A stretch of DNA of 64,000 nt from a virus (Duplodnaviria > Caudoviricetes), in the IMG/VR virus record IMGVR_UViG_3300026493_000002; one strand, written 5' to 3'. Numbering within the stretch: position 1 is the first letter of the stretch; each line of letters opens with the position of its first letter. Below, piece after piece: positions 5,640-34,876 of the stretch. Made by a program: the position numbers and the translations under genes. A model generated the notes under the pieces. That model did no database searches. It had not been told where the DNA came from and was given only the letters and a program-made list of their open reading frames with translations.

Positions 5640-6221
5640 ATGGCTAGACGTAAGACGGCGCTCAAGGCTCTACCAGCCAACGCGCATCCTCTTGGTATCG
5701 GTGAAGCCGAAGACCAGTTGTATGTCATCCGTAGCGAGGCTCAAGCGTGCCTTCGCGAAGACGACACTGAATCCTACAAGGGCTTCCGCTCACACGGTCC
5801 CGTTGAAATCCGTGGCATGTGCCCGCACGGCGTCGATACGATCTACCAGCTGTACTTCACCTACCTGCCGTCGAGAGGCGGCGTGACAGTAGAACAACAA
5901 CGCTTGATGAACTTTGCCAAGGTGCTGGCAATGCGATTGGTTAGTCCTGACGCATACGCCCGTGATCTTGCGAACTACCTGTGCATCGGTCAGGCCCAGT
6001 TTGACAACGGGGAACTGCTGGCACTAGGCGGCATCAACTCGGAAGCGGCTGCTATCCACATCCGAGGTTACACCTGCTGTAAGCCGTGCAGCAAGCACAT
6101 GAATGGCAACACCCTGATACGAATCCACAATGCCGCGCGCTGGACGGAGTCCGACCTGAATCGGGAACTGGAACGTGCGTGGACTACTCAGCAGCAGACC
6201 AAACTACAATACGAGGATTGA
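5640..6221 (+). CDS. Hypothetical protein
   Basis: SD aagga upstream; co-oriented ORF. Confidence 0.6.
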   Translation: MARRKTALKALPANAHPLGIGEAEDQLYVIRSEAQACLREDDTESYKGFRSHGPVEIRGMCPHGVDTIYQLYFTYLPSRGGVTVEQQRLMNFAKVLAMRLVSPDAYARDLANYLCIGQAQFDNGELLALGGINSEAAAIHIRGYTCCKPCSKHMNGNTLIRIHNAARWTESDLNRELERAWTTQQQTKLQYED

Positions 6222-6226
6222 CGTAC

Positions 6227-7198
6227 ATGGACAACAGCCTTTTGCCGACGATCGGTGAGCAAGTAATCGACCTCTACAAGCGCACGGTCAAGACCGATGG
6301 TGTGCAGAGCGGTAACTTCGATGAAGAGACCATGCGCTGGGCCATCGAAGAGGTCGGTCGCAACCTGATCGCCAGCTACGCCCGTGCCGAGAAGCTCTCG
6401 CAGACCCACGAAACGCTGGAGAGCGCCGCCAAGTGGAATGCGCTGGTCGGCAGTTCGCGCATTCGTGTGCTGGGATCGTCCGGCCTCACGACCGAGAAGT
6501 CCTACTACGGTGAAGATCGTCAGGGCTATGCCCATCTGGGTCTGGAGCTCTGGACCATCGGACCTGGCCACGAAACGGACAACCTCGGCGGGTTCTCGGG
6601 CAACGACTGGCTGGAGAAGTACGTCAACATCATGCGTGAGAACCAGGGCACGCTGAACACCGGCATGGAAGTCCGTACGCCGCTGAACTACGTGCTGCGC
6701 AGCGACGACGTGCAGTGGATCATCAACTCGGCCAACGAGGTTGGTGTCCGTGTCGGCAACCAGTGCTTCTTCTACCACGAAAGCCGCAGTGTGCAGTACA
6801 GCGCGGCAGCCGGGTTGAAGTTCCGGCCGATCTGCTCCCGCGATATGGGCAACCTCAGCGAACTGATGATCCGCCGTGTGCGCGAAGATACGTCGGGCCC
6901 GGAATGGCAGCTGGTCAAGAGCTATGAAGGCACCATGCGCCGGCTGGTTCCCGACGACGTGGCGAGTCATCGTGTTTCGTGGCGCAACATGCTGGTCGAG
7001 GCCAAGAAGGCCAATCTCGCCAACATGGAGCTCGATCACGACGAGCGCACAGGCAACGATTCGTACTACGACCACGAGATTCGCAGGTTCGATAGCGTGT
7101 TCGACGAACTGGCGACGATCAGCCACCATCTGGCATCGTACCCGCATCCCGACCACAAGCTGACGCCGGCTATCACCGTCTCGGCTCAGGAGGCGTAA
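6227..7198 (+). CDS. Hypothetical protein
   Basis: SD gagga before ATG 6227; strong GC3 codon pattern. Confidence 0.7.
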   Translation: MDNSLLPTIGEQVIDLYKRTVKTDGVQSGNFDEETMRWAIEEVGRNLIASYARAEKLSQTHETLESAAKWNALVGSSRIRVLGSSGLTTEKSYYGEDRQGYAHLGLELWTIGPGHETDNLGGFSGNDWLEKYVNIMRENQGTLNTGMEVRTPLNYVLRSDDVQWIINSANEVGVRVGNQCFFYHESRSVQYSAAAGLKFRPICSRDMGNLSELMIRRVREDTSGPEWQLVKSYEGTMRRLVPDDVASHRVSWRNMLVEAKKANLANMELDHDERTGNDSYYDHEIRRFDSVFDELATISHHLASYPHPDHKLTPAITVSAQEA

Positions 7199-7869
7199 TG
7201 GCCAACCACATCTTCAACACCCGCTACCAGATCGACCTGCTCGACTACATGCTGACCTGCAATCAGGCGCTGCGTGAAGGCTGCGATCTGCCTGAGCCTC
7301 CGAACAAGGAGTATCGTCGGGGTGCGGACGGTGGCATATCGGTTGATGCCATTTGGTCGCAGCTGTACGGCCAGATGTACCGTATCTCGGACCATGCACA
7401 CTACGCACGCATCGGTAGCAACGACGAGGACATTGCCAATCAGGCCCAGCGTATGCTCGATCGGATTCACCAGTCGGCCGATCCCACCGACATGGCTCTG
7501 CCCGGCTTGGTGCCGCGCTTGGTCCAGATCGGTATGGACACGCGCACGTACTGCCGCATTCTGATTCGCCCTGTCGATAAGCCGGTGCTGCCTGATCCGA
7601 CCGCGCCGCGTCAGTTCTTCCAGAACCTGATGCCGCTTGGCGCCAAGTGGGAACACGCGTTGGTTGACGTGCAGTTCACCAACAAGCCGACTCCCACCGG
7701 GGACGTACACAACGGCTACTGCACGGTGAATGACAATGCTTGCGAGATTTACCAACGCATGGCAGAAGTCGTCGAAAGCTGCGATGCAACCATTCGTCAG
7801 GTCAAGCCGTTCGACTTCGATGGCCTCAATTTCCAACTGACCTTCTCCGAGATCCACGCCAATGGCTAA
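7198..7869 (+). CDS. Hypothetical protein
   Basis: TAATG overlap with upstream gene; SD aggagg. Confidence 0.7.
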   Translation: MANHIFNTRYQIDLLDYMLTCNQALREGCDLPEPPNKEYRRGADGGISVDAIWSQLYGQMYRISDHAHYARIGSNDEDIANQAQRMLDRIHQSADPTDMALPGLVPRLVQIGMDTRTYCRILIRPVDKPVLPDPTAPRQFFQNLMPLGAKWEHALVDVQFTNKPTPTGDVHNGYCTVNDNACEIYQRMAEVVESCDATIRQVKPFDFDGLNFQLTFSEIHANG

Positions 7870-8149
7870 GCGCAAGACCCGTCTGACTGGCAACACGCTG
7901 CACAACGACGGTGACCATTCCGGACTGCTGTTCAAGATCGTGTTCGTGATTCTCGCCGTAGTTGGCGTGCTGTACGCGATCGGTAGCGAGCATCAGTTCC
8001 GCAAGACCAACGACTATCGACGGATCTACTCGGCCGACGTTGCGCCTTGCAGCACTCCGGAAGATGCGGAGCAGTGCCGTCGCTTGGCCGTGCCGCTCAA
8101 CATCGAAGAAGATCAACCCGCAGAGACTGCCGCTGAGGCAACTCTGTAA
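7862..8149 (+). CDS. Small single-pass membrane protein
   Basis: Hydrophobic LLFKIVFVILAVVGVLYAIG; overlaps upstream stop. Confidence 0.6.
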   Translation: MAKRKTRLTGNTLHNDGDHSGLLFKIVFVILAVVGVLYAIGSEHQFRKTNDYRRIYSADVAPCSTPEDAEQCRRLAVPLNIEEDQPAETAAEATL

Positions 8150-8219
8150 AGCACAACCAACGTCGCGTGTCTGAGCCTTGCAGCGCGCGACGACCTCAGT
8201 CAAGGCAACAGGAATCCAT

Positions 8220-8450
8220 ATGAATGCACAGGTCGTGACCTCGAAAACCCGTCTCGCTCACCTCAACTCGCTGCTGGCTGCCGATGCTGCCAAGCTCGAT
8301 CTGCCCGCATTCCGTGCGAGCGTTGGTGCATCCGGCTCCAACCAGGACTGGCTGCGCAAGGCGATGAAGAAGCATCCCGAGTGTAGTGCGGAAATCAAGG
8401 CCCTGCTGGACGTGCCGTTCAAGGATCTCCTCAAGCCGCACGTGGGCTGA
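8220..8450 (+). CDS. Small hypothetical protein
   Basis: SD agga before ATG 8220; followed by a strong terminator. Confidence 0.65.
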   Translation: MNAQVVTSKTRLAHLNSLLAADAAKLDLPAFRASVGASGSNQDWLRKAMKKHPECSAEIKALLDVPFKDLLKPHVG

Positions 8451-8482
8451 GTGCTGGACTGAAACACAGCTGGTGGTTTGCT

Positions 8483-8537
8483 AAAAAGAAGCGGTAGCGC
8501 ATCCTGTTAATTCAGGCTCTGTGCTACCGCTTTTTTC
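8483..8537 (+). terminator. Long (possibly bidirectional) intrinsic terminator
   Basis: aaaaagaagcggtagc...gctaccgctttttt with inner cctg/cagg stem. Confidence 0.8.
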
Positions 8538-8675
8538 GTTTCCGCACGCTGGAATACGCTGCCGTTCGGGTTTGCGCCGAAAGCAGGATGCTAATTTTGA
8601 GCATGTTCCCGGGCGCTCTTTGCGCTGTTCGGGAACTCCGTGCTATACAAAGAGCATCCACTGGGAGACCCCTGA

Positions 8676-10322
8676 ATGAATACCACCAACCCGTCCGCTG
8701 GCGTGTATGTGACCGAACGCGACTTGTCGGAACGTATTGCCAACGCGTCCACGACCATCGGCGCCATCGTCGGTCCCTCCCAGAAGGGTCCGGTGATGGA
8801 GCGCACGTTGGTGACTTCGGTCAAGCAGTTCGTGGAAATCTTCGGGCGCCCGACTCCGCAGACTTCGCAGATGCACTACCATGCCGCGCAGTTCCTGACC
8901 GAGTCGAGTCGTCTGTACGTCACCCGCGTGGTGGCACCCGACACGCTGACTGCTGGCGCCTACCTGAGCGTGGACGACCTGAGTTCGCCGGCGCCCATCC
9001 TCAAGCTCAACAACTTCGACGACGGCACCAACCAGCCGCTCGGCAAGTACGATCCCTTCAACACCCTGGGCTTCGATCCGGCTCAGCCGGGTATCGACCG
9101 CGTGCTGGGCTTCTTCTGCGCAGCGAACCCCGGCACCTGGAACAACGAAATCTTCATCCGCGTTCGTCCCTCGACCAAGTCGGGCGTTGCCGCACCGGAT
9201 GATCCGTACCTGTTCTACGTGGACGTCTTCCTGAACTACCGCTCGCGCCGTCAGGCACCGAACGAATCGTTCCTGGTCTGCCGCGACTTCTACGTCGATG
9301 GCTTCGGTGAACAGCTCCAGATCGAAGAGGTCATCAACCGTCAGTCGAACATCATCCGCTACCGTCCGAACGAAGCCGCCCCGATCAAGGTCAAGATCCT
9401 GAACGTGGCGACCGAGTACCTGGATGGTGCAACCAACGGCTCGCGCCCGGCTGACGGCCTGGTCGTGCAGGGTTGGGAACTGTACGTCGACCCGGAACGT
9501 GTGGACGTGAACATCCTGATCCAGGGTGGTTACGAGAGCATCAACGTGCAGCAGACGATGACGACCATCGCGGAAGATCGCATGGACGCAATCGCGGTGC
9601 TGGATGTGCCTCGTGCACAGCAGGACGTCAGCGACGCCGTGTACTTCCGTCGCAACGACCTGAACATCGACAGCAGCTACGCGGCCCTGTACGGCCCCGA
9701 CCTGCTGATCTACGACGAGTACAACGACCGTGAACTGTACGTGGCGCCGTCGGGCTACGTTGCCGCCGTGATGGCGAAGACCGACAACGTCGCCGCTACG
9801 TGGTTCGCTCCCGCGGGTCTGGAGCGTGGTCTGCTCCGCATTCGTGGCCTGCGTCACGTCTACAATCAGGGTGATCGTGATGCCCTGGTGGACGCGCAGA
9901 TCAACCCGATCCGCAGCTTCCCGAAACTGGGTTCGTATGTCGTGTGGGGTGCTGACACCCTGCAGGTCATGGCATCGGCCCTCACCAACGTCAACGTCCG
10001 TCGTCTGCTCAACTTCGTGGAGAAGTCGATCCAGATTGCGGCCATCTACAAGACGTTTGAACCGAACGATGAAATCCTGTGGTCTCGCCTGACGGAAATG
10101 TGCGAACGTTTCCTCAAGCCGATCCGTGCCGGCCGTGGTGTCTACTGGTACGACGTGGTGTGCGACGAGAGCAACAACCCGCCCTCGATCCAGGCCAACG
10201 GCGACACGATTCTGGATATCTACGTCGACCCGGTGATCCCGGCGAAGCGCATCCACCTGAACGCAACCGTGACCCGTCGCGGCGCGTCGTTCACCGCGGA
10301 AGCACTGGACACCTCGAACTAA
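8676..10322 (+). CDS. Contractile tail sheath protein (T4 gp18-like)
   Basis: N-terminal SAGVYVTERDLS, FG.P; C-terminal PSG.VA, WFAPAG..RG, INPI, VWG..TL, NVRRLL, FEPND, CDE.NN sheath motifs. Confidence 0.95.
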   Translation: MNTTNPSAGVYVTERDLSERIANASTTIGAIVGPSQKGPVMERTLVTSVKQFVEIFGRPTPQTSQMHYHAAQFLTESSRLYVTRVVAPDTLTAGAYLSVDDLSSPAPILKLNNFDDGTNQPLGKYDPFNTLGFDPAQPGIDRVLGFFCAANPGTWNNEIFIRVRPSTKSGVAAPDDPYLFYVDVFLNYRSRRQAPNESFLVCRDFYVDGFGEQLQIEEVINRQSNIIRYRPNEAAPIKVKILNVATEYLDGATNGSRPADGLVVQGWELYVDPERVDVNILIQGGYESINVQQTMTTIAEDRMDAIAVLDVPRAQQDVSDAVYFRRNDLNIDSSYAALYGPDLLIYDEYNDRELYVAPSGYVAAVMAKTDNVAATWFAPAGLERGLLRIRGLRHVYNQGDRDALVDAQINPIRSFPKLGSYVVWGADTLQVMASALTNVNVRRLLNFVEKSIQIAAIYKTFEPNDEILWSRLTEMCERFLKPIRAGRGVYWYDVVCDESNNPPSIQANGDTILDIYVDPVIPAKRIHLNATVTRRGASFTAEALDTSN

Positions 10323-10439
10323 TCGTTCGGGGTTGTCCTCCGCCTCGGGACATTCCCCATACAACAAACACCAAGCCTACAAGACAAGGACCCGAAAGGT
10401 ATCGCAAGGAAGCAACACAAATATCTAGTAGAGGCTATT

Positions 10440-11021
10440 ATGCAAGAGGATGTTAGGCAGACTGGGGAAAGCCGAGTCCCTGACGCCCAAGTTTTGCATG
10501 CCAGACAGGAAATGCTCTTTGAGTCTTTCGCTGAGGTCAAGCGTGTACTCAAGACCGTCGAGGAGACTGTTGCGATCTTTCGCGTGTTCGACATGCAGAT
10601 CAAGCAGCAGGGCCTTGACATGGATCGGCTCACCCGTGTCGTTGATGACCTGCATCAGCGGCTCAACGACATGGGACCGATGGTCGAGAAGAGCATCAAC
10701 GTCGTGCGCGCCGACCTCTCTGAGGAAATCGAAAAGGCCCAGACCACTGCCAATGAAGTAGGCAGCAAAGTGAGCAACAAGCTCTCTTGGATTCAGGGCG
10801 CAGTTGCGGCTGTTACCTTCCTTGGCGCAATCATGTACGGCTTTGGCGTATGGTGGGGAGGTCGATATGTGGACATCATTGAAAATGGTGACCGCTACAT
10901 CCACACCCTGAAAACTTTGCAGGCGGAAGAACACCTGCGAAGCTCGCTGGGCGACAAGCCCAGGATTGAGCAGCTGGAGAACCCTCCGGTTGTGACGCGG
11001 GACAACGGGCGCAGGCTTTAA
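10440..11021 (+). CDS. Coiled-coil protein with C-terminal transmembrane helix (XhlA/holin-like architecture)
   Basis: Heptad-rich N-part then WIQGAVAAVTFLGAIMYGFGVWWG. Confidence 0.55.
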   Translation: MQEDVRQTGESRVPDAQVLHARQEMLFESFAEVKRVLKTVEETVAIFRVFDMQIKQQGLDMDRLTRVVDDLHQRLNDMGPMVEKSINVVRADLSEEIEKAQTTANEVGSKVSNKLSWIQGAVAAVTFLGAIMYGFGVWWGGRYVDIIENGDRYIHTLKTLQAEEHLRSSLGDKPRIEQLENPPVVTRDNGRRL

Positions 11022-11097
11022 ACGGTTTGCGCCCGTTCACTCCTATCGTAGAAGACAAAACACCGGCCTCGAGGAGGGGCCGGAATAGGTAAACACC

Positions 11098-12291
11098 ATG
11101 ACCCTCTCCACAACGCAGAGTAGGACCTTGGACGAGAGCCGTAGAATGGCTGTGGAAACTCTCCACGACATTCGCCAGTCAGCAGCCAACATTGCCGACA
11201 CGATGAAGACCGACGTGCTTCACAACACGAAGATGCTTCGGACTGTGGCGACCCTGCTGGAAAACGGTCTCGTTCTTCTTGACAAGGATAGTAGGATCAC
11301 GGTCTTCAATCCTGCGGCCAGTTCGATTTTCGGACTGCAGGCATCGGAGGCGGTGGGCAAGACTTTCGGTCAGTTGTTCCCTTCCCTGGCACGGAAGTTC
11401 TCTGCCGACTCGGATTCGATTCAGGGCATCCATACCCTGGACGATGAAGGCCGTAGTGGAGTTGTAAACCTGTCGTTCGCTCGGATGGTCGATAGCAGCA
11501 CTGACCATTCGTTCAGCGTTTTGGTTGCAAGTAAGGAATTCAGGGGATGCCAGAACGGTGAATGCCAGGACGGCTTGCAACAGCGGCTGAAAGATGCCAA
11601 TGACCTGCACAGCCTGACCATCTGGAACTTTCCCATCCCAGCTTTCTTCTCGGATGCGGAAGGTACAACGATCAGAGGTAGCAAGGAGTTCTACGCCCTC
11701 ATGGGCCGCACGCCCAGCCAGTTGAATGGCCGGAGCGTGGAAGAACTGCTGCCCGCTGCATACCACGACTGGTACTTCAAATCGGACGACGCTGCTCCGC
11801 TGCGAATGTACCTGACGACCCCGCAAGGAGTACGTGAGTTCCTTGCGCATCGCAATCCTGTCACTGACGACACTGGCCGAAAGATCGGCTATATCACCTG
11901 CCTCGTCCAACAGGCAGTGCAGCAATCGGGTGATACCGATTTCGTACGGTCCTTCATAAAGACCATCGACGCGCTTGACACACCACTCATGCTGGTGTCC
12001 TTCGCAGAGGGGCGTGTGCTGCTTGTCAACCGTGCGTTCTGCCTGAAATACGGCTACGAGCGCCCGGATATCATCAACACCAAGGCAACTTCCATCCTGT
12101 CAGGTGGAGACTTCACTCGCCTTCGCCGGACCATGACCCACGCGCTCGCCACAGGCAAAGACAGCCTTGGCCGTTTCCGTATCAGAGACGCGCTCGGGAA
12201 TCGCATTTGGTTGACGGTAAAGGCTATCGCAATCTCCACTGGACTGGTTGAGGGTAAGCACCCGAAGTATTGCCTCCTGACGGAGTGCTAA
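11098..12291 (+). CDS. Triple PAS-domain protein lacking an output domain
   Basis: Three PAS signatures: GLVLLDKDSRITVFNPAASSIFG..EAVGK; IPAFFSDAEG...SKEF..LMG...QLNGR; PLMLVS..GRVLLVNRAFC..YGY. The ORF ends right after PAS3. Confidence 0.85.
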   Translation: MTLSTTQSRTLDESRRMAVETLHDIRQSAANIADTMKTDVLHNTKMLRTVATLLENGLVLLDKDSRITVFNPAASSIFGLQASEAVGKTFGQLFPSLARKFSADSDSIQGIHTLDDEGRSGVVNLSFARMVDSSTDHSFSVLVASKEFRGCQNGECQDGLQQRLKDANDLHSLTIWNFPIPAFFSDAEGTTIRGSKEFYALMGRTPSQLNGRSVEELLPAAYHDWYFKSDDAAPLRMYLTTPQGVREFLAHRNPVTDDTGRKIGYITCLVQQAVQQSGDTDFVRSFIKTIDALDTPLMLVSFAEGRVLLVNRAFCLKYGYERPDIINTKATSILSGGDFTRLRRTMTHALATGKDSLGRFRIRDALGNRIWLTVKAIAISTGLVEGKHPKYCLLTEC

Positions 12292-12295
12292 GTCC

Positions 12296-12835
12296 ATGAC
12301 TATCAAAGAGTCCGTCCCGTACCGGGAGGCTCAGTCGTCTATTCGTACTGGGGATATTGTCTTCATCGGTGGAGCCAAGAGCCTGTTCTCGTGGCTTATC
12401 TCCGCCGTCACTCGCTCCAGCTTCTCGCATGTTGGTATCGCGTGCTGGATGTATGACCATCAGGAAAGCGTGCCCACGTTGTTCATTGTCGAGGCCACTG
12501 CTGGCGGCCGGCGCCTTGTCACCATGGACTACTACGGTGATCGACGTCCAATGAACATCGTGGAATCGCCTGTTCACTGGGTGAAGTACCGTGCGCCGTT
12601 GCTTGAGCGCACCGGGCTGGAGAGCTACGGCTACTTCGACCTGATCGGTATTGGCATCAAGGAAATGTTCGGGATTCGCACAAAGGACTTCGACGGTCAG
12701 GTGTGTTCCGAAATGGTTGCAACCATGCTCAACGAAGGCGGCCTCGGCCTCGATACTTCAATGAGTCCTGGCCGTCTCTACACCGCACTTCTGGAACGTG
12801 GCTGCGCCGTCAAGGCGATCACCACACCCAAATAA
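12296..12835 (+). CDS. Permuted papain-like NlpC/P60 amidase (YaeF/YiiX, C92 family)
   Basis: IRTGDIVF, SSFSHVGI (His) preceding VCSEMVA (Cys), the circularly permuted order. Confidence 0.85.
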   Translation: MTIKESVPYREAQSSIRTGDIVFIGGAKSLFSWLISAVTRSSFSHVGIACWMYDHQESVPTLFIVEATAGGRRLVTMDYYGDRRPMNIVESPVHWVKYRAPLLERTGLESYGYFDLIGIGIKEMFGIRTKDFDGQVCSEMVATMLNEGGLGLDTSMSPGRLYTALLERGCAVKAITTPK

Positions 12836-12853
12836 CCTACAGGTAAGGTAGCC

Positions 12854-13186
12854 ATGTCACAACACGAAACTCCCGCAGATCCGGCCCGTGCCGCCCTTGA
12901 ACTGGCTCGCCGGCGTCAGGATCTGGAGCTCTCCGAACTGAAAGCGCAGCGCAACGTGGCCTTGGACGAGAACTGCTCGCTCCGTGCCGAGATTGCACTG
13001 CTGCGCTCTGCTGTGAGGGAAGCTCGCGCATCGAATGAGGCAAGCCAGTCGGCGTTGCAGCAGGCACGATCCAACCTGACTGCGACGATCAACGAACTCG
13101 CCGGCGTGAAGGAGGAGCTTCGTCTGGAAAGGCAGAAGCCTGCTGGCCGTAGTCGCACTCGCACTCGCCAGTCGCAGACGCCGTAA
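12854..13186 (+). CDS. Coiled-coil hypothetical protein
   Basis: Heptad A/L/E/R-rich, basic RSRTRTR tail; SD aaggt. Confidence 0.6.
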   Translation: MSQHETPADPARAALELARRRQDLELSELKAQRNVALDENCSLRAEIALLRSAVREARASNEASQSALQQARSNLTATINELAGVKEELRLERQKPAGRSRTRTRQSQTP

Positions 13187-13248
13187 CACCAAGATCCTCA
13201 CTTCCCGCACACCGCTGACGGTGGTGCGTCAATCACCGGAGCAATCCC

Positions 13249-13701
13249 ATGGCGGTCAACGTATCTTCGTTCCTGCTTCCACGCAACGGCGCACAGTGGT
13301 TCGTCCTCGAAGACATTTATGTCCGAGGCGGCTTCCGCATCGTTGCGAATCTCGAAGCGCGCGCTGCTATCCATGCCTCTTCCAAGAAGGCTCGAATGGT
13401 TGTCATCACTGCCGACGACGGCAAGGTGTGGCAGCTACAGCCTGACATGGTGACGTGGGCCGAGTTCCGCACAAAGTCCACGTACTACCCGTTCTTCACG
13501 CATGACCAGCCTGAGGCTTCGGAAAAGTGGACTGTCCAGCATAACAAGGACACCCAGTATTTCTCCTACACGCTGTTCGATGGTGAGGGTGAGCAAATCA
13601 TCCCTGGCGGTGTCCGCATTGTGGACCCCAACACCATCGAGTTCAGTTTCAGTATCCCCGTCTCCGGACATGTGACGTTGACGTTCGCGGAACTGAGCTA
13701 A
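13249..13701 (+). CDS. Putative virion fibre/decoration protein (SFLLPR N-module plus one W.V.H beta-module)
   Basis: N-terminus paralogous to the 18963 and 21204 products; C-terminus paralogous to modules in 13849, 15636 and 16256. Confidence 0.65.
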   Translation: MAVNVSSFLLPRNGAQWFVLEDIYVRGGFRIVANLEARAAIHASSKKARMVVITADDGKVWQLQPDMVTWAEFRTKSTYYPFFTHDQPEASEKWTVQHNKDTQYFSYTLFDGEGEQIIPGGVRIVDPNTIEFSFSIPVSGHVTLTFAELS

Positions 13702-13848
13702 CCCATAAGAGTCTACAATCTCCTTACACTACAGGCACGTGCTTTGTAGGTTGGCTAGCATCGTCCTGAGGTCCAACGGATTGGACAACTGACGTGACCT
13801 AGTTGGCTACTATACCCTCTTTTCTTATTGCTCTCTTTGGAGATTCAC

Positions 13849-15558
13849 ATGGACCTGCTTGGCAATCTCGTACTTCGTGGTCTTGGCTTCGTCAAGAACC
13901 TGCGCATCGAAAACCTGGCCGCGGATCCCGTAACGCCGTCGACTGGCCAGCTGTGGTACAACACCACCGATGGCGAGTTCCGCGTCTACGACGGCACCAC
14001 GGTCAAGACCATCTCCCTGGGCGGCGACAGTGCTGCGATCCAGGCCGAACTGGACGCAACCCAGGTCGGTGCTGGTCTGGGCGCTGACGGCTCGTACACC
14101 AAGTTCACCGACAGCAACTACATCAACGATGCCACGTCGCTGACCAACGCCGACAAGCTGCTCGACACGCAGTTGAAGACCACCGATGCCGACCTGCGTG
14201 CGCTGGTCATTTCGGCCGCCAGCACTGCGCAGGAGCTCAACTCGGTTGAGACCGGCGCTGGCCTGAGCAACACCGGTACCTACGTGGTCCCGACCGGCAC
14301 CAACTACCTGGATGCTTCGACCTCGCTGGCCAACGCTGACAGCCTGCTGGACACCGCAGTGAAGTCTGCGGCTGATGCAGCTGCGGCTGCTGCGACCAAG
14401 GCCGATGGCGCAGTCGAGCGCACCGGCGACACCATGGAAGGCAACCTGGCTTTCGGCGGCACCCACAAGATCACGGGTCTGGCCGATGGTACGACTGCCA
14501 CTGACGCCGTCAACAAGGGTCAGCTGGACGCTGCTCTCGCCGGTCTGGACTTCCAGCCGGACGTGTGGGGCGTGCAGACCGATGCAACCCTGGTGCCGGA
14601 AGAAACGCTGGGTCGTCGCTACATCATCACCAATGCTGCTGCCCTGAACGCGGGCTTCGGCACCATTGACGGTGTTGCGAACGGCGATATCGTGGAATAC
14701 GACGGCGCCGACTTCCAGGTCGTGTACGACGTGTCCACTGCCGGCCCGGGTGCCATCGCGTGGAATCGTGGTGACAACCAGTTCTGGTACTACGGCGCCA
14801 CGTCGTGGTCGGCCTTCGGTGGCATGTCCGGTGTTGAAGCCGGCGTGGGCTTGAAGAAGACCGGCAACGTGCTGAGCGTGGAGCTGGGTGCTGGTATCGG
14901 CCAGCTGCCGACCAACGAAGTTGGCCTGGACGTTCTGCCCGCTGGCGGCCTGTTCCTGACCGAGAACGGCACGGCTGCTTCGACCGGTACCGACGCCAAG
15001 CTGGCGCTGCTGCTCGACGGCACCACGCTGGCTCGTTCGGCGACCGGTGTCAAGATCGCTGACGCGGGTGTTGGCGCTGCCCAGATCGCTGCTGCTGCCC
15101 TGGGCAATGGTCTGGTTGGCGGCGCTGGTACCGTGCTGAGCGTCGAAGCCAAGCCGGACGGCGGCATCATCGTCGACGAGGACGGCCTGAGCATCGACCC
15201 GAGCGTCCTCGAGTTCCTGCCGCTGGCTGGCGGTGAACTGACTGGCCCGCTGCTGCTGGCTGCCGATCCGACCGACAACCTGGGCGCTGCCACCAAGCAG
15301 TACGTGGACGCCAAGGCTGCAGGCATGGGCGGCACCTTCAACTACGACGGCGTGACCAGCTCGACGACCCACGTCGTGCAGCACAACATCGGCTCCAAGT
15401 ATTGCGTCGTCACGGTCGTGGACAGCGCCGACAAGGTCATCATCCCGGACAGCATCACGTTCGACGATGAAAACAACCTGACCGTGGGCTTCGCCTCGGC
15501 CATCACCTGTAAGGTGGTCGTCGTCGGCAAGTACGTGGCGCCGGCTCCGCAGCAGTAA
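13849..15558 (+). CDS. Virion fibre/structural protein (A/G/T-rich, DAVNKGQLD and AATKQYVD fibre motifs)
   Basis: SD ggag before ATG 13849; fibre-knuckle motifs typical of phage tail fibres. Confidence 0.75.
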   Translation: MDLLGNLVLRGLGFVKNLRIENLAADPVTPSTGQLWYNTTDGEFRVYDGTTVKTISLGGDSAAIQAELDATQVGAGLGADGSYTKFTDSNYINDATSLTNADKLLDTQLKTTDADLRALVISAASTAQELNSVETGAGLSNTGTYVVPTGTNYLDASTSLANADSLLDTAVKSAADAAAAAATKADGAVERTGDTMEGNLAFGGTHKITGLADGTTATDAVNKGQLDAALAGLDFQPDVWGVQTDATLVPEETLGRRYIITNAAALNAGFGTIDGVANGDIVEYDGADFQVVYDVSTAGPGAIAWNRGDNQFWYYGATSWSAFGGMSGVEAGVGLKKTGNVLSVELGAGIGQLPTNEVGLDVLPAGGLFLTENGTAASTGTDAKLALLLDGTTLARSATGVKIADAGVGAAQIAAAALGNGLVGGAGTVLSVEAKPDGGIIVDEDGLSIDPSVLEFLPLAGGELTGPLLLAADPTDNLGAATKQYVDAKAAGMGGTFNYDGVTSSTTHVVQHNIGSKYCVVTVVDSADKVIIPDSITFDDENNLTVGFASAITCKVVVVGKYVAPAPQQ

Positions 15559-15635
15559 AAGCAATCGCGGCAGTGCGGAGGGCTGGAGCAATCTAGCCCT
15601 CCTTGATTCACGCAGATAGAATAAAGGAAACCGCG

Positions 15636-16244
15636 ATGGATATCCATGGCGCCATGAACTTCCGCGGCAACCCGGTCAGCAACTTCGCTTTCAAGATGGA
15701 GAACGATTGGCCGATTGATCCGCAACCCGGTCGCGTACTGTTCCGCGAACAGGACCGGATGCTGTACATCTGTGCGGAACTTGCTGGCGGTCTGCCGGTG
15801 TGGGTTCCGTGTGCACAGGTCAAGGACATGTATCGCCATCAGCAGGGCGATGCCGCGCTGGAGTGGACAGTCGAACACAAGCTCAACATCAACCCGGTGT
15901 TGGTGCAGGTGTACGACGCAGAGGGCAAGTGGGTGATTCCGGACGAAATCATCTGCTCCGATCCCAACCGCTCCATCGTGAAGTTCAACATCCCGACGGC
16001 TGGCACCGCAATCTGTATTCGCGGTGAAATGTTCGGTGTCACTTCCGAGAACGTGGCCTACGAGCAGGACTTCACCGAAGCCGCTGACGAATGGGTCGTG
16101 GTCCACAGTCTGGGCTACAACCCGGATATCAAGGTCTACGTCGGCGGTGTGCAGGTTCAGCCGCAGTCCATCGTTCACAACAGTACCACGCAGGCCACCG
16201 TCACCTTCTCGGAGCCGCAGTCTGGCTTCGTGCGCTGCTTCTAA
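15636..16244 (+). CDS. Putative virion protein with two W.V.H beta-modules
   Basis: SD aagga; internal duplication EWTVEHKLN.../EWVVVHSLG.... Confidence 0.65.
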   Translation: MDIHGAMNFRGNPVSNFAFKMENDWPIDPQPGRVLFREQDRMLYICAELAGGLPVWVPCAQVKDMYRHQQGDAALEWTVEHKLNINPVLVQVYDAEGKWVIPDEIICSDPNRSIVKFNIPTAGTAICIRGEMFGVTSENVAYEQDFTEAADEWVVVHSLGYNPDIKVYVGGVQVQPQSIVHNSTTQATVTFSEPQSGFVRCF

Positions 16245-16255
16245 GGAGAATGGTT

Positions 16256-16477
16256 ATGTCCGTTTTCCGCCGTAGCTCGCACACCCATGTTCAGACGGAG
16301 CCGAGTGATGAATGGACGATCACCCACGGCATGTACTGCCGCCCCGCGGTGAGCGTGACCATTGAACACGAAGGCAAGGTGCAGACTGTTCTGCCCCTCG
16401 AAGTTGAAATCGTGGACCTCCAGACGGTGATCGTGCGCTTCACCAAGCCTCAGACTGGTGAAGCCCGCTTGGGCTAA
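16256..16477 (+). CDS. Stand-alone single W.V.H beta-module protein
   Basis: SD aaggag; EWTITHGMYCRP...IVRFTKPQTG. Confidence 0.65.
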   Translation: MSVFRRSSHTHVQTEPSDEWTITHGMYCRPAVSVTIEHEGKVQTVLPLEVEIVDLQTVIVRFTKPQTGEARLG

Positions 16478-16493
16478 GCCAAAAGCGCGTCGT

Positions 16494-16530
16494 AACGGGA
16501 GGCATCCTTCACTGGGTGTCTCCCGTTTTT
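16494..16530 (+). terminator. Intrinsic terminator
   Basis: aacgggaggcatcc-ttcact-gggtgtctcccgtt then tttt. Confidence 0.75.
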
Positions 16531-16613
16531 GCTATGCGGACCATGTGTGCATAGTAATTTACCACTATCTAAACGAGCGGACTATAGCGCCGCCTCACCG
16601 AATGGGGACATTC

Positions 16614-17300
16614 ATGGAACTCCGCCTCAACCAATTCATCACGGGTGTCGAACGCATCACCGATATCCACAATCTCGATTACTCCAACGTGGTGCTGTTC
16701 AACATGCACCACCCGAAGTACGTCGAGTTGGAACCGACGCTGCAGGCCGCTGCCGAAGACGACGACAGCGAACTGATTAACTCCAACTTCCGCATGGCTG
16801 CGGGGTTTGTCGAACCGGACTATTTGAGCCTGCCGCTCAATGGCATCTGGATCAACCTCTACCCGCACAGCAACTACTACCGACAGGCCCTGCGCCTCGT
16901 TGATACCCGTCCTCCGAACGAGTCGGGTGTTGCCAACGCCATAACCAACGAAGGCTACAACGCCACCTGGGTGAAGCTCAGCCGCTACGACCAGATGTTC
17001 GAGGTCCAGCAGCAGGACACCGGCGGCAGTGCTGGTCCGAAGGGACCGGACGGCGACAAGGGCCTCGTACACAAGAACGCGTGGCTGATCGACACCGCCT
17101 ACAAGTTCGGCGATGGCGTGATGCACAACGGCAGCTACTGGGTTGCGAAGCGCGACAACACGGGTGCAGACCCGAGTGAAAGCGCAGCCGACTGGCAGCT
17201 ACTGGCGGAAGTGGGCGATGATCCCGATATCGACTACGACCGTATTCTCCGCGAGGTCAAGGAACAGCTGGGTTGGGACGACGTTCCTCCTCCGCTCTGA
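16614..17300 (+). CDS. Putative fibre/adhesin with short collagen linker and CBM5/12 (ChtBD3)-like module
   Basis: GPKGPDGDKG; WLIDTAYKFGDGVMHNGSYWVAK..N..P....WQL. Confidence 0.7.
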   Translation: MELRLNQFITGVERITDIHNLDYSNVVLFNMHHPKYVELEPTLQAAAEDDDSELINSNFRMAAGFVEPDYLSLPLNGIWINLYPHSNYYRQALRLVDTRPPNESGVANAITNEGYNATWVKLSRYDQMFEVQQQDTGGSAGPKGPDGDKGLVHKNAWLIDTAYKFGDGVMHNGSYWVAKRDNTGADPSESAADWQLLAEVGDDPDIDYDRILREVKEQLGWDDVPPPL

Positions 17301-17344
17301 TTTTCTCTCGCTCCACCCTCACTGATTCCTGACACGAGGCATAC

Positions 17345-18892
17345 ATGGACACCAAGCTCCAAGAATTCGTGAGCCAGACCGCAACTCTGGCGAGCGTGCG
17401 AAACGTCGATACCCGCAACCCGATTGCCTACGATCTGGACATGCCGTCCATGTCGATGCGCTTCCGCGTTGTGGGCAGCATCGTCGAGCCGAGCTACAAC
17501 GGCTATCCGATCAACCTCATCTGGGTCGTCCTCGACGGCAACAGCCCGTATTTCAACAAGGTGTTGCAGTTGAAGTCTGCGACCTCGAACGATGAATCCA
17601 TCGAGGATCGCATCACCGACGTCAACTTCATGGGCACCTGGGTGCAGCTGGAGAACTACGCGGATCTGTTCCTGTATCCGCAGTACTACGTCACGGGCGG
17701 CGGTGCACCCGGTCCGGCTGGCCCGAAGGGTGACCCCGGCTACAACGTGCGTGGCGACTGGGTCCTGACCTCGACCTACGCCCGCAACGACACGGTGCAG
17801 TTCAACGGCAGCAGCTACGTCTCGCGCATCGCTGACAACATCGGCGAAACGCCCGGTGTCAGCACCAACTGGCAGCTGGTTGCCCAGAAGGGTGACACGC
17901 CCGAAGTGGACTACAACCGCATCATCGCCGACGTGGTTGCCATGCTCAAGCCGACGCTGGTCGAGCTGGAGATTCGTGGTTCGACCGCCGACCTGTTCGA
18001 GGGTGCAAGCCGCACGTTCGCCGTGTGGGCGAAGTACAGCAACAACACCGAAGAGAACGTGACGGCGAACGCGCAGTGGACCGTGAGTCCGAACGCCGTT
18101 GGCTCGATCAACTCCTCGGGCGTGTTCACTGCTGCACAGGTCAACGCTGATACGCCGACGACCCTGACTGCCGCGTACACCAACCAGGAAGGCGCAAGCC
18201 GTTCGGCCGACACGGGCTTCACCGTGAAGAACAAGGTGCCGACCGCTGTGACCGTCTCGGGTGCCGCGAACGTCAACGAAGGCACCACGTCGCAGTACAC
18301 CGCTACCGTCCAGTACAACGACGGCACCTCGGTTGCTGTTCCGTCCAGTGGTCGCGTGTGGGCTGTCGAACCCGATACCAACGCGTCGATCAATGCCTCC
18401 GGCCTGCTGACTGCCGGCCAGGTGACTGCTGACACGGCGGCTGTCGTTCGTTGCAGCTACACCGAAAACGGTACGACCGTGTCGGGTACCCGCAGCATCA
18501 CGATCAAGAACGTGGTCGCAGCCTCTCAGGCCCGTTACCTGTCGCGTGCCCGCATCACCGATATGTCGCAGTACAACAGCGCGTTCGTGAACAGCCTGAC
18601 CAACACCGTGCCGAGCGGCTGGCCGCATGACCTCGATCTGGCGATCGGCAGTGGCCAGTACGGCTACTACGCCCATCCCAAGTCGTGGGGTCTGGCCCGC
18701 TTCGAGGACAAGGATGCTCCGGGCTTCCCCGGCGGCTGGGACGGCGCTCGCAACGACATTCTCGATCCGTCGAAGTACGGCCCGTACGAAGTCCAGGCGA
18801 CCGTCAACGGTGTCACCGAAGCATGGTACATCTACCGTACCGATCAGCCGGCGCTGGGTAACACCCGCTGGACGATCTCGGTCACGCCGTAA
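17345..18892 (+). CDS. Tail fibre/adhesin with CBM5/12-like module, two Ig-like (Big) domains and C-terminal head domain
   Basis: [10 protein letters not shown]; W...TY..ND.V.FNGSSYV; repeated Ig-like units (A..YS..T..VT..A.W....G.I..SG..TA..V..DT). Confidence 0.8.
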   Translation: MDTKLQEFVSQTATLASVRNVDTRNPIAYDLDMPSMSMRFRVVGSIVEPSYNGYPINLIWVVLDGNSPYFNKVLQLKSATSNDESIEDRITDVNFMGTWVQLENYADLFLYPQYYVTGGGAPGPAGPKGDPGYNVRGDWVLTSTYARNDTVQFNGSSYVSRIADNIGETPGVSTNWQLVAQKGDTPEVDYNRIIADVVAMLKPTLVELEIRGSTADLFEGASRTFAVWAKYSNNTEENVTANAQWTVSPNAVGSINSSGVFTAAQVNADTPTTLTAAYTNQEGASRSADTGFTVKNKVPTAVTVSGAANVNEGTTSQYTATVQYNDGTSVAVPSSGRVWAVEPDTNASINASGLLTAGQVTADTAAVVRCSYTENGTTVSGTRSITIKNVVAASQARYLSRARITDMSQYNSAFVNSLTNTVPSGWPHDLDLAIGSGQYGYYAHPKSWGLARFEDKDAPGFPGGWDGARNDILDPSKYGPYEVQATVNGVTEAWYIYRTDQPALGNTRWTISVTP

Positions 18893-18898
18893 GCCAGC

Positions 18899-18928
18899 AG
18901 GGCCCGTGCTTTCATAGGCGGGCCCTTT
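18899..18928 (+). terminator. Intrinsic terminator
   Basis: agggcccg...cgggccct followed by tt. Confidence 0.65.
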
Positions 18929-18962
18929 GCTGCTACATCCATCTCAGATTTCGGAGCTAGCC

Positions 18963-20738
18963 ATGCCCATTGCAATTGCCTCTTTCCTACTGCCGCGTCC
19001 CGGCAGCAACTACTTCCTCGTTGAGGATATCTACGTTCGCGGCGGCTTCCGTACGGTTGCTGACCTCGCTGAACGTGATGCCACGCCGGTGAACAACCTC
19101 AAGAAGGGCTGCCTCGTGTACGTGCAGTCCGAGGAAGTCCTCTACCGCTTCGTTGGTCCGACCCCGGACGATGAAGGCCTTGTCTTCGAGCTTGCCAACT
19201 TCGGCGGTGGCGGCGGGATGACCTGGCGCGGCACGTGGACCCACGAAATCGAGTACGCGCGCAACGACGTGGTGTATCACAACGGATCGTCCTGGATCTG
19301 GCCTGTGGACAGCGCACCCAATGGTATCGAGCCTGGCGCTGACAACGAATGGCAGCTGGTTGCTCTCGTTGGCGAAGCTGGTACCGACGGCGAGAAGGGT
19401 GACAAGGGCGACGTGGTCAGCATGACCCCGAACGCTGCTGGTACGGCCGGCGAACGTCCGAACTACGACAACGAGCCGAAGGGCTTCACGTTCATGGACG
19501 TGGATACCCCGGCGCTGTACATCCGCAACGATGATGCAGGCGGTTCGTGGGCCGGCCCGTTCGACTTCTTGCAGGGTCCGCGTGGCCTGCAGGGCATCCA
19601 AGGCGAACAGGGTATCCAGGGTCCGGAAGGCCCCAAGGGTGATACCGGTGAGCAGGGTATCCAAGGCCCCAAGGGTGACAAGGGTGATGACGGCGACGTC
19701 GGTCCCCAGGGTGCCGAAGGCCCGAAGGGTGATACTGGCGAACAGGGTATCCAGGGTCCGAAGGGTGACAAGGGCGATACCGGTGAGCAGGGTATCCCCG
19801 GTGTTGCCGGCCTGACCAACAAGGGTGTCTACAACCCGGCCACCACGTACAACGAAGGTGACGTGATCGCTCACGATGGCCGTTCGTACTCTGCTGCGCG
19901 TGACGGTGTCGTTGGCATCGAACCCGTCGGCAGCACCGTCGACTGGACCGTTCTTGTCGAGCGCGGTGCACAGGGCGAGAAAGGTGATACCGGTGAGCAG
20001 GGCATCCAAGGCGTGGAAGGTCCCGAGGGTCCGGAAGGCCCGCAGGGTATCCAAGGCATCCAGGGTCCGAAGGGTGACAAGGGCGACAAGGGTGACGCAG
20101 GCGGTTCGGTTAATCACGCTGCGTCCCACGCCAAGGGCGGCAGTGACGAACTGACCCCTGCTGCCATCGGGGCTGTCGCTGATACGGGCGGTACCGTCAA
20201 CGGTGACCTGACCATCACTGGCAAGCTGTTCGGCAACAACGTCTTCCCCACGGTCGGCGATCTGCCTGCACCGGCTGCGTCCGAAGGCAACCTGGTGTTC
20301 GTCACCGAAGGCGCACGCACGCTGTTCTCCAACGGCACTGCATGGGTCGACGTTGGTCGTGGTGGTGACAAGGTGCTTCCGTACGACCTCGGCTTCTATG
20401 CCGGTGGTGCGAACGATGCGTCCGCAGTCCTGTCCGCGTTCCTCGCCGTCCGTTCGATTGCCCTCAAGGCAGGCCTGACCGGCAGTCGCGCACGATGCCT
20501 GGTTGCTCCCTCGGCCGCACTCACCCTGCAGCTGTGGAGTGACAGCACCCAGATCGGCACCGTGAACTTCGCTTCGGGTTCGACCACCGGCTCGTTCACG
20601 TTCTCCGCGGACGTAACGATTGCGGCTGGCGCCGTGGTCAGTCTGCGCACGGGCTCTGCCGGTAACGCCGCAGTCCGCAACGTCATGGTTACCCTCGTCG
20701 GCTTCGCTGTTGCTGCCGAAGGCACCATGAACTCGTAA
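18963..20738 (+). CDS. Collagen-like tail fibre/whisker protein with two CBM5/12-like modules
   Basis: Long Gly-X-Y tracts (GPKGDTGEQGIQ repeats), SFLLPR N-module, beta-rich C-terminal head. Confidence 0.85.
   Translation: MPIAIASFLLPRPGSNYFLVEDIYVRGGFRTVADLAERDATPVNNLKKGCLVYVQSEEVLYRFVGPTPDDEGLVFELANFGGGGGMTWRGTWTHEIEYARNDVVYHNGSSWIWPVDSAPNGIEPGADNEWQLVALVGEAGTDGEKGDKGDVVSMTPNAAGTAGERPNYDNEPKGFTFMDVDTPALYIRNDDAGGSWAGPFDFLQGPRGLQGIQGEQGIQGPEGPKGDTGEQGIQGPKGDKGDDGDVGPQGAEGPKGDTGEQGIQGPKGDKGDTGEQGIPGVAGLTNKGVYNPATTYNEGDVIAHDGRSYSAARDGVVGIEPVGSTVDWTVLVERGAQGEKGDTGEQGIQGVEGPEGPEGPQGIQGIQGPKGDKGDKGDAGGSVNHAASHAKGGSDELTPAAIGAVADTGGTVNGDLTITGKLFGNNVFPTVGDLPAPAASEGNLVFVTEGARTLFSNGTAWVDVGRGGDKVLPYDLGFYAGGANDASAVLSAFLAVRSIALKAGLTGSRARCLVAPSAALTLQLWSDSTQIGTVNFASGSTTGSFTFSADVTIAAGAVVSLRTGSAGNAAVRNVMVTLVGFAVAAEGTMNS
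19570..20100 (+). repeat. Collagen-coding imperfect tandem repeats
   Basis: aagggtgataccggtgagcagggtatcca-like unit recurs near 19635, 19724, 19769 and 19981. Confidence 0.8.
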
Positions 20739-20757: not shown

Positions 20758-21204
20758 ATGCCATTCATGGTGCAATTCGTTAATGGCTCGGGCGCAGTCT
20801 CCGACTCCGGTGGTTCCGATGATGGTCAGGGCATCTTGCCCATCATCGGCGTTGCTGACTGGAATGCACCTCGTACCAGTGACACGATCTTGAATCTCCG
20901 TGCGATGCAGCGCGGCCCGAACCCGTCGCGCCAGATCCCGATCTTCAACATCGAGGCTCAGGGCAACGACGGCTACTGGCTGGCGTATCCCAAGATTTAC
21001 GGTCTCGCCACTTTCAACGAGGTGGATTCCAACGGCAACATCATCGGCATCGGTGACGGCGGCTGGGACGGCGCAAACGGCGATCCGATCAGCACGCAGG
21101 GTCCGAAGGAAGTCGAAGTCATCATCGACAACAAGCGGATCCCCATGTACCTGTACATGAGCGACTGGCCGGGTCTGGGCAACTCCTACTGGAGGACGAC
21201 CTAA
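20758..21204 (+). CDS. Putative virion protein, stand-alone paralogue of the 17345 C-terminal domain
   Basis: GY..AYPK.YGLA.F...GGWDGA..D....GP.EV......YLY.SD.P.LGN..W is shared with the 17345 product. Confidence 0.65.
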   Translation: MPFMVQFVNGSGAVSDSGGSDDGQGILPIIGVADWNAPRTSDTILNLRAMQRGPNPSRQIPIFNIEAQGNDGYWLAYPKIYGLATFNEVDSNGNIIGIGDGGWDGANGDPISTQGPKEVEVIIDNKRIPMYLYMSDWPGLGNSYWRTT

Positions 21205-21821
21205 TGCCCATCGCAATTGCCTCTTTCCTGCTGCCCCGTCCGGGCGGCAACTACTTCCTCCTGGAGGACGTCTACCTGCGTGGTGGCTTTCGTGTAGTTG
21301 CAACGCATGAAGCGCGCGATGCGATCCCGCCTCTGAGTCGCAAGGCTCAGATGCTGGTTGTCACCCAGGACGACAAGAAGATCTGGCAGATGGATGACGA
21401 CCTCGAAACGTGGTCCGAGTTCAAAGCTGGCGGCGGTGGAGACGGGGCTGGGCCTCGCGCGACCTTCGAGCATACTGTAAACGACATTCCTGCCCTGTCG
21501 TATGCAGATTTCGATATGGACGCAGGGAACACGATCATCGTGTTGAAGCTGCGCGTCTCCACCGCCTGCATTGTGGAAGTCCATGAGACTTCCCAGCGCA
21601 TCGACAACAACCCGTACAAGTTCATCGCCACCGAAGATCACCTCGAGGACGATGGAACCACCGAGTTGGAGGACGGCACGACTGTGAAGAATCGCCGCTA
21701 CTCCATTCTGACCAACATGGAGGTTGAGCCCAACGGCAAGCAGTTCATCCGCATCATCAACCCAAGCGAAAGCATGGTTAGCGTAAAGCTCACCGTCATT
21801 TACAAGCCTGTTGAGGCTTGA
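21204..21821 (+). CDS. Putative virion protein with SFLLPR N-module
   Basis: N-terminus MPIAIASFLLPRPG identical to the 18963 product; TAATG coupling. Confidence 0.7.
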   Translation: MPIAIASFLLPRPGGNYFLLEDVYLRGGFRVVATHEARDAIPPLSRKAQMLVVTQDDKKIWQMDDDLETWSEFKAGGGGDGAGPRATFEHTVNDIPALSYADFDMDAGNTIIVLKLRVSTACIVEVHETSQRIDNNPYKFIATEDHLEDDGTTELEDGTTVKNRRYSILTNMEVEPNGKQFIRIINPSESMVSVKLTVIYKPVEA

Positions 21822-21840
21822 TCTACCTGGAGACAGAAAC

Positions 21841-34797: not shown

Positions 34798-34876
34798 GTC
34801 AGGTCCTTGCGTTGGATGATGTGCTTCAACGGCAAACACCGGCTGTAGAGCTAGTCCACAGCCGGTGCCGTATCGC

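Follow-up and report, generated by a model that had tools for sequence, protein, structure and literature searches.

Lytic phages are usually held to follow a fixed programme, and the best-studied sensors that phages encode belong to temperate phages, VqmA of phage VP882 among them. VqmA of this vibriophage is a PAS-containing quorum-sensing receptor, through which a small-molecule signal decides a late event (PMC8284805). In Caulobacter crescentus, MopJ, a single-domain PAS protein that has no output domain, makes protein-protein contacts at a defined membrane-proximal site (PMC4432633). This report concerns a phage protein that consists of an N-terminal helical segment and three PAS domains, again with no output domain. 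It is encoded in a 64,000-nucleotide (nt) stretch of viral DNA (Duplodnaviria; Caudoviricetes; IMG/VR record IMGVR_UViG_3300026493_000002), which is referred to, at its full length, as the window. Its gene lies directly behind the gene of a coiled-coil membrane protein (protein A) and ahead of the genes of a putative cysteine hydrolase (protein C) and a small coiled-coil protein (protein D). The A-PAS pair is real, conserved and specific to one clade, and its fixed membrane partner is unusual; what is said below about its function is a proposal. Full-text literature searches located no paper in which PAS-only proteins are described from jumbo phages or next to tail genes.

A first-pass annotation of the window, made from its letters alone, described the triple-PAS protein (397 amino acids (aa); positions 11098-12291, + strand) as a helix followed by three PAS folds, lacking kinase, GGDEF, EAL and helix-turn-helix (HTH) domains, and comparisons at the level of families and of folds agree. 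Four Pfam families match in three stretches of the protein, each above its gathering cut-off (given second): PAS_9 at 70.9 bits (27; E = 1.2e-19), PAS_4 at 62.7 (23.1), PAS at 61.3 (22.6) and PAS_8 at 40.7 (21.8). PAS_4 and PAS_9 are the two families that the annotation had proposed searching for. TIGR00229 scores 71.6 bits against a cut-off of 22.9. The AlphaFold2 (AF2) model, which was built on nine homologues (predicted local distance difference test score (pLDDT) 67.6), has helices at residues 11-53, followed by PAS1 (residues 57-146; DNA 11266-11535), PAS2 (residues 182-271; DNA 11641-11910) and PAS3 (residues 297-396; DNA 11986-12285). Each unit runs beta-beta-helix-beta-beta-beta, so that an antiparallel five-stranded sheet with helices recurs three times; pLDDT is ~55-83 in PAS1 and PAS2 and ~70-89 in most of PAS3, with lower values at residues 141-150 and 381-390. 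The solved structures ranked highest by Foldseek are all multi-PAS (DosP, PpsR without its HTH, and light-oxygen-voltage (LOV)-PAS; probability 1.00), and in BFVD, the viral structure library, the matches are kinases with PAS domains and, from uncultured phages, a few small proteins that contain PAS alone. By sequence and by fold, the protein belongs to the PAS superfamily. A family search carried to E values of up to 1 matched no kinase (HisKA/HATPase_c), GGDEF, EAL or HTH domain in it, and it falls far short of the equivalog cut-offs for AtoS, DosP, PhoR and PpsR.

The protein is also complete. It terminates inside PAS3, where the C-terminal sequence P-K-Y-C-L-L-T/S-E-C/V is near-constant in nine close homologues and distant members terminate within a few residues of the same motif; only 4 nt separate its stop codon from the start of the next gene; and positions 6000-18000 of the window are identical in four other assemblies. 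An output domain lost to a frameshift, which the first-pass annotation had named among the outcomes that would refute it, is therefore very unlikely, whether as a sequencing artefact or as real decay, and the protein stands as an output-less triple-PAS protein, an architecture that is directly observed. One relative does carry a broken copy: at L012:4992-5998, on a 191-kb IMG/VR contig, the frame ends behind PAS2, and the first part of PAS3 continues for only ~55 aa in another frame, which reflects either decay of PAS3 or an assembly error.

Conservation is distributed unevenly along the protein. It is strongest in the N-terminal helix and the initial half of PAS1, followed by motifs in PAS2 and PAS3, and the second half of PAS1 accommodates large insertions in homologues. 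Judged from the alignment, this pattern would suit a conserved surface for interaction or dimerisation better than one conserved pocket for a cofactor.

A word-indexed search yields eight full-length homologues with 41-76% identity; an exhaustive profile search extends this to ~19 clusters at 50% identity, all of them 302-428 aa long. In 17 of the 19 the match to the profile is a single stretch that covers most of it, and in the two shortest it is divided in two. The remaining top hits are multi-PAS proteins of at least 748 aa that owe their scores to summed repeats, and a form fused to an output domain is not found among the best 150 of 101,142 profile hits. Searching 50,697 phage records by tblastn with PAS, A and C gave no match, no relatives came from scans of IMG/VR, whether with the PAS protein itself or with its alignment, and a scan of a single metagenome recovered one known locus (L005) again, together with generic PAS hits and nothing else. 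Elsewhere, a 744-aa protein with at least four PAS domains and no output domain is encoded at L026:4150-6384 (- strand), on the IMG/VR contig of the L015 phage (G004:C1, ~68.1-70.4 kb); its gene adjoins that of a topoisomerase IB and is distant from the C-family gene of that phage. Output-less multi-PAS proteins may recur in jumbo phages.

Protein A (193 aa; 10440-11021, + strand), as defined by its alignments and its hydrophobic segment, consists of a coiled coil of ~115 aa, one hydrophobic segment (residues 120-138; Kyte-Doolittle (KD) value 1.64) and a short C-terminal tail, in which the motif Y-I-x-x-L-K-T-L is conserved. The transmembrane helix would span residues ~117-140, and the KD maximum ranges from 1.64 to 2.12 across members. 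No signal peptide is present; a W-K-E-K-Y-x-x-x-R-G motif precedes the helix, and in most members Lys and Arg are more frequent before the helix than after it. This Lys/Arg-rich motif, placed just ahead of the helix in most members, suggests that the coiled coil is on the cytoplasmic side, and we infer that A is a tail-anchored inner-membrane protein. It matches no family in Pfam, PHROG, NCBIfam or PADLOC, the holin families of Pfam and PHROG included, and its look-alikes in the ESM Atlas are unnamed coiled-coil clusters.

The source of the window is an uncultured soil jumbo phage of the PaBG/Lu11 type. By identity of the sheath protein, its nearest cultivated relatives are NCTB (47%), PaBG (47%; 46.6% to one decimal place), Lu11 (40%) and HRDY3 (39%). 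The A-PAS pair is present in 13 loci (the window, L002-L005, L007-L009, L011, L012, L016, L017 and L030). Wherever the upstream DNA is on the contig, the pair lies directly behind the sheath gene, and A adjoins PAS in all of these loci; both the pairing and the distribution are direct observations. Profile searches of the complete genomes of PaBG, NCTB, Lu11 and HRDY3 found no member of the PAS family, and a search of PaBG, the only one of the four to which the A profile was applied, found no A; both profiles gave strong hits in G001, which served as the positive control. In these four genomes the gene of a tail protein of ~214 aa begins within 3-10 nt of the end of the sheath gene. In a tree of sheath proteins, the PAS-bearing loci whose sheath gene is complete, ten in number, form one clade (support 100/100), apart from PaBG, NCTB, Lu11 and HRDY3. 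Since the PAS-bearing phages are monophyletic and four relatives lack PAS, the pair was most likely gained once: the phylogeny suggests that an ancestor of one clade of uncultured soil phages probably acquired it by insertion directly behind the sheath gene, and that the clade has retained it since, despite rapid divergence.

Seven consecutive genes on the + strand, sheath, A, PAS, C, D, E and F, make up the region, and all the open reading frames of the first-pass annotation are present on that strand, each where it had been placed. The sheath gene (548 aa; 8676-10322; Phage_sheath_1 and Phage_sheath_1C; phrog_23, 3e-96) is the upstream anchor of the insertion. Its downstream edge is E, a small fibre-type protein (150 aa; 13249-13701; phrog_23630, 3e-19; phrog_21918), whose N-terminal domain is common to PaBG gp270 and other fibre genes; tblastn with PaBG gp270 matches 13249-13512. 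F (576 aa; 13828-15558) is a fibre-like virion protein that matches phrog_16122 ('virion structural protein', 4e-110) and YadA_stalk. The description of the flanking genes in the first-pass annotation as a coiled-coil/transmembrane gene, a permuted NlpC/P60 gene and a further coiled-coil gene, co-oriented and set in a structural region, is upheld by analyses of families, folds and hydrophobicity. Its proposal that the four genes form a cassette fares less well. C and D do not accompany A-PAS in L016, L017 and L030, and C occurs without A and PAS in L010 and L013-L015, so that the four genes are not an obligate system. The synteny that was to be sought in related jumbo phages does exist, as a conserved arrangement in the relatives, but these make up a single collinear clade, and C and D are separable from PAS. 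As A-PAS is kept while C and D are lost or replaced, and as C moves independently, the constant unit is A plus PAS.

What lies behind PAS is a variable accessory slot. C and a D-like small gene fill it in ten loci, it is empty in L016 and L030, and in L017 it holds a gene for an Acb1-like protein and a 323-aa gene. The L017 locus is that of a distant relative, on a contig of 43% GC; its Acb1-like gene (L017:2270-2773, + strand) would encode a phosphodiesterase directed against CBASS (cyclic-oligonucleotide-based anti-phage signalling system; PF23474, 4.5e-11, above the cut-off). The 323-aa gene, which has no assigned family, comes after it, and the two stand in place of the hydrolase and coiled-coil pair.

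Protein C (179 aa; 12296-12835, + strand) is predicted to have the fold of a permuted NlpC/P60 (papain-like) hydrolase of the YiiX/C92 kind, and the earlier call of a permuted amidase is sustained by the residues and fold scores that follow. Its score for Peptidase_C92 is 24.1 bits, under the cut-off of 27, and that for NF007458 is 18.3 against a cut-off of 216; several homologues carry PF05708 in precomputed tables, and C itself matches phrog_1128 (1e-15). His45, Cys137 and Ser138 are invariant in 33 sequences, and His is N-terminal to Cys, which is the permuted order. The model of C (pLDDT 85.8) aligns in VIA-align with the Bacillus cysteine peptidase 3kw0 (Z 17.0; root-mean-square deviation 2.9 over 162 residues), with Escherichia coli YiiX (2if6; Z 14.0) and with TseH, a cell-wall-directed effector of a type VI secretion system (Z 8.1). 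C has no signal peptide and no lipobox. The idea that it is a deconjugating peptidase acting on modified tail proteins was dropped, its sole hint having been a weak fold match to a deSUMOylase (Z 4.4).

The C family comprises 55 members, and the contigs that carry them reach 364 kb. In L010, L013, L014 and L015, C is found with neither A nor PAS and with no sheath gene nearby. In L013 it lies directly behind a gene for an M23+GH108 protein, and in L014 it overlaps the start of a gene for an M15_4/VanY-type peptidase; from such neighbours in other phages, the cell wall is the best guess for its substrate. In L010 the protein encoded upstream of C is an FNIP/leucine-rich repeat protein, and hhalign of the PAS profile with it was negative. 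Phage NCTB, which has no member of the PAS family, contains a weak C-family match (LT598654.1, 184442-184834, - strand; E 1.2e-5) in a 182-aa frame ~26 kb from its sheath gene. The hydrolase is thus a separately mobile and optional occupant of the slot, not a dedicated output of the PAS protein. Protein D (110 aa; 12854-13186, + strand), which occurs solely where C occurs, is a soluble coiled coil with a basic C-terminus and no hydrophobic segment; its only family matches are weak ones of the coiled-coil type. With 16-29% identity in relatives whose sheaths are 62-75% identical, it is the fastest-evolving gene of the block.

The block differs from its neighbours in two directly measured properties. 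The first is codon bias. The GC content at third codon positions (GC3) of A, PAS, C and D is 0.66-0.69, as against 0.81 for the sheath gene, so that a lower GC3 than that of the sheath, which the first-pass annotation had judged by eye, is confirmed; the mean of the window is 0.755 (standard deviation 0.046, n = 57 genes), which puts the block at about the 5th percentile. The same dip occurs in five relatives with an overall GC content of 51%-60%, in which A and PAS (and C and D where present) lie below both the sheath gene and the fibre gene F; in these six phages the GC3 of the block is below the locus mean, with the one exception of C in L003. Since the dip lasts across relatives, it is best read as a sign of expression weaker than that of the major structural genes, rather than of recent transfer. 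The second property is evolutionary rate. In a comparison in which the sheath is 62% identical to that of the window, identity is 24% for PAS, 22% for A and 16% for D, and 39% for C, 41% for E and 49% for F. By this measure A, PAS and D evolve much faster than the sheath.

The sheath gene is probably the first gene of a transcription unit to which the block would belong. The spacer between sheath and A shrinks to 2-20 nt in L009, L012, L017 and L030, and a scan of 8000-16500 for consensus promoters and terminators found no terminator on the + strand between the sheath and fibre genes. The scan of that strand was otherwise of no use, and the middle/late promoter motif of Lu11 does not occur in the window. 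At 8485-8545, a short way ahead of the sheath gene, is a long GC-rich hairpin followed by six consecutive T; it resembles an intrinsic terminator for the unit before it, in which case the sheath gene would open a new transcript. The consensus scan missed this hairpin because its loop is long. As an observation apart, phage DNA is abundant in RNA-labelled soil preparations, and the phage recurs in several soil samples (runs X2-X5).

Farther downstream, the fibre-region proteins encoded at 13249-13701, 13828-15558, 15603-16244, 18927-20738 and 21204-21821 have modules in common among several of them, namely an N-terminal domain that PaBG gp270 ('endosialidase chaperone') and gp272 also possess, and a beta domain of ~60 aa at the C-terminus. 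The region appears to hold a mix-and-match repertoire of fibres. A 387-aa protein (21811-22974, + strand) matches phrog_12249, which is annotated 'tail sheath' (1e-87), in addition to the 548-aa sheath already described; either the PHROG is misnamed or this is a second sheath-related tail protein.

How might the A-PAS pair work? The reading to which we tentatively incline is that of a late, low-abundance, membrane-associated PAS pair that serves as an input or adaptor device, acts by protein contacts and is followed by an exchangeable accessory slot. The PAS protein, with its N-terminal helix and three PAS domains and with no enzymatic or DNA-binding output of its own, would be cytoplasmic; its fixed partner A, as a tail-anchored protein of the inner membrane, would hold the PAS array there. 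The pair would be an accessory module, made in small quantity along with the late genes. It would act by protein contacts alone, in the manner of MopJ and other output-less PAS proteins, and would pass an intracellular input (a ligand, a redox state or a protein partner) to a late process close to the membrane. The slot behind PAS would usually supply a separately mobile cysteine hydrolase, probably directed at the cell wall, together with a small coiled coil.

Several considerations weigh against this reading. Binding between A and PAS is conjecture; a complex prediction of PAS with residues 1-116 of A scored 0.00 against a mark of 0.32 but, having been made without control runs, counts neither for nor against binding. 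The adjacency of A and PAS is also not an independent sign of coupling, because the whole region is collinear across the PAS-bearing clade, so that its occurrences are phylogenetically non-independent. With regard to sensing, no signature of a cofactor or ligand was recognised: direct reading finds the LOV-type (flavin) motif G-x-N-C-R-F-L-Q in none of the three PAS domains, and an alignment of 25 family members contains no invariant His or Cys, a proximal His being the heme ligand of FixL/DosP. The domains may yet bind some other ligand. The position between sheath and fibre genes would suit a role in assembly too. Seven soil runs labelled as metatranscriptomes contain the locus, and four of them were compared over positions 6000-18000; they include contigs of 25-65 kb identical to the phage, and contigs of up to 243 kb overall. 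Because these contigs are of genome length, the RNA-labelled libraries most likely contain phage DNA, and they have no bearing on transcription, its start sites or its levels.

A more specific proposal, which we regard as doubtful, is that the pair is a membrane-tethered intracellular sensor of a lytic jumbo phage, in which a metabolite, redox or energy signal from the host, received late in infection, would gate an event at the membrane or cell wall, for instance lysis timing or the action of whatever accessory enzyme occupies the slot. Were that so, the locus would exemplify a split design, sensor plus exchangeable output, that has not been described for phages.

It is improbable that the PAS array is instead a signalling decoy, an idea of the first-pass annotation, which would heterodimerise with PAS domains of host histidine kinases or cyclic di-GMP enzymes and so block or misdirect host signalling. 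A protein of PAS domains only, whose conserved part (the N-terminal helix with the initial half of PAS1) is where dimers usually form, would fit such a role; residues 9-96 align weakly with the linker-helix-plus-PAS region of the membrane kinases AtoS, PnpS, PhoR and NblS, and rapid evolution fits an interaction with the host. However, no specific host-like donor is apparent, the best hits outside the family being generic, very large multi-PAS proteins whose scores are sums over repeats; the strict pairing of PAS with a membrane protein of the phage itself speaks for a partner from the phage; and a gene in a late structural operon would come late for host takeover.

Control of lysis, with A as a holin- or antiholin-like protein whose timing PAS adjusts to the state of the cell, and with C as the muralytic enzyme that is released, is also unlikely to be the explanation. 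C has the predicted fold of permuted NlpC/P60 enzymes that are active on peptidoglycan (Z 8.1 to TseH), it adjoins genes of M23+GH108 and M15_4/VanY hydrolases in other jumbo phages, and A is a membrane protein whose large, presumably cytoplasmic domain could receive a regulator. Yet the window has a candidate lysis pair of its own at 33844-35215 (- strand), which consists of a lipoprotein-type endolysin-like gene (33844-34797; phrog_669 endolysin, 4.6e-17) and a gene for a 112-aa holin-like protein (34877-35215; phrog_8226 holin, 9.2e-7). The presence of this separate pair lowers the chance that the block is a lysis cassette, and it weakens the coupling to lysis that the first-pass annotation had considered. 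A-PAS is, moreover, retained in three loci that lack C, A has no match among the holin families, and the cultivated relatives lyse with neither A nor PAS.

We give a similarly low rating to the view that the site behind the sheath gene is an island that gathers fast-evolving host-interaction genes, at which A-PAS would block immunity or a secondary infection at the membrane. The Acb1-like anti-CBASS gene in the slot of L017 is suggestive, the evolutionary rates of A, PAS and D exceed those of their neighbours two- to threefold, and the module is accessory and clade-specific; but no PADLOC model was matched, and the Acb1 neighbour is one observation. We know of no anti-defence protein that is built from PAS domains. 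Least probable of all is an accessory of tail or fibre assembly, or a minor virion component, with the PAS folds as a scaffold and A anchoring assembly at the membrane: the genes do lie between sheath and fibre genes, co-oriented, tightly spaced and probably co-transcribed, and C-family genes are near fibre genes in L010, L013 and L014 too, but four cultivated relatives with homologous sheath and fibre genes have no PAS (and A was found in none of them by tblastn, or by profile in PaBG), in six phages the block has a lower GC3 than the structural genes, the proteins of the A-PAS block evolve much faster than sheath, E and F, and PAS is matched at the level of sensor-family sequence, not by fold alone.

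The adaptor reading, tentative as it is, indicates why the locus may merit attention. A PAS-only protein with a dedicated membrane partner, conserved in the late tail operon across a clade of giant soil phages, would be a candidate for state-dependent control of late infection. Sister phages that have the module, lack it or carry different genes in the slot constitute a comparative system. The YiiX-like hydrolase, as a separately mobile jumbo-phage gene associated with cell-wall hydrolases, offers a functional lead for the C family.

Set beside the closest described systems, the phage protein is a member of the PAS superfamily, but it belongs to none of the families of MopJ, PpsR and VqmA. Like MopJ, it is built of PAS alone and has neither a catalytic nor a DNA-binding output. 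MopJ is a bacterial protein with a single PAS domain, and its gene is not accompanied by one for a dedicated membrane anchor; the likeness is one of PAS fold. PpsR/CrtJ (PDB 4hh2) is composed of an N-terminal PAS domain, a helical linker, two more PAS domains and then an HTH. It resembles the phage protein in its triple-PAS array, its similar length and its helical connectors (Foldseek E 8e-14), and differs in that the HTH is missing from the phage protein, which scores 18.6 for TIGR02040 against a cut-off of 275; with a template-modelling (TM) score of ~0.27, the match cannot be read as showing the same domain arrangement. Protein C shares its permuted papain-like fold, with His before Cys, with YiiX/YaeF (Peptidase_C92; 3kw0, 2if6) and TseH (6v98), and it stands apart from YiiX/YaeF in being phage-encoded, in its score just under the Pfam cut-off and in its lack of a signal peptide or lipobox. 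The viral PAS proteins in BFVD (a multi-sensor kinase of Agrobacterium phage Atu_ph07 and 'PAS domain' proteins of uncultured Caudovirales) have PAS folds, and some of them are small and output-less; they are not relatives in sequence, by the tblastn search of phage records, and none is described with a paired membrane protein. VqmA is the best-studied precedent for PAS sensing by a phage. It couples one PAS domain to a DNA-binding domain in a temperate, plasmid-like phage, whereas the protein described here combines three PAS domains, without an HTH, with a membrane partner.

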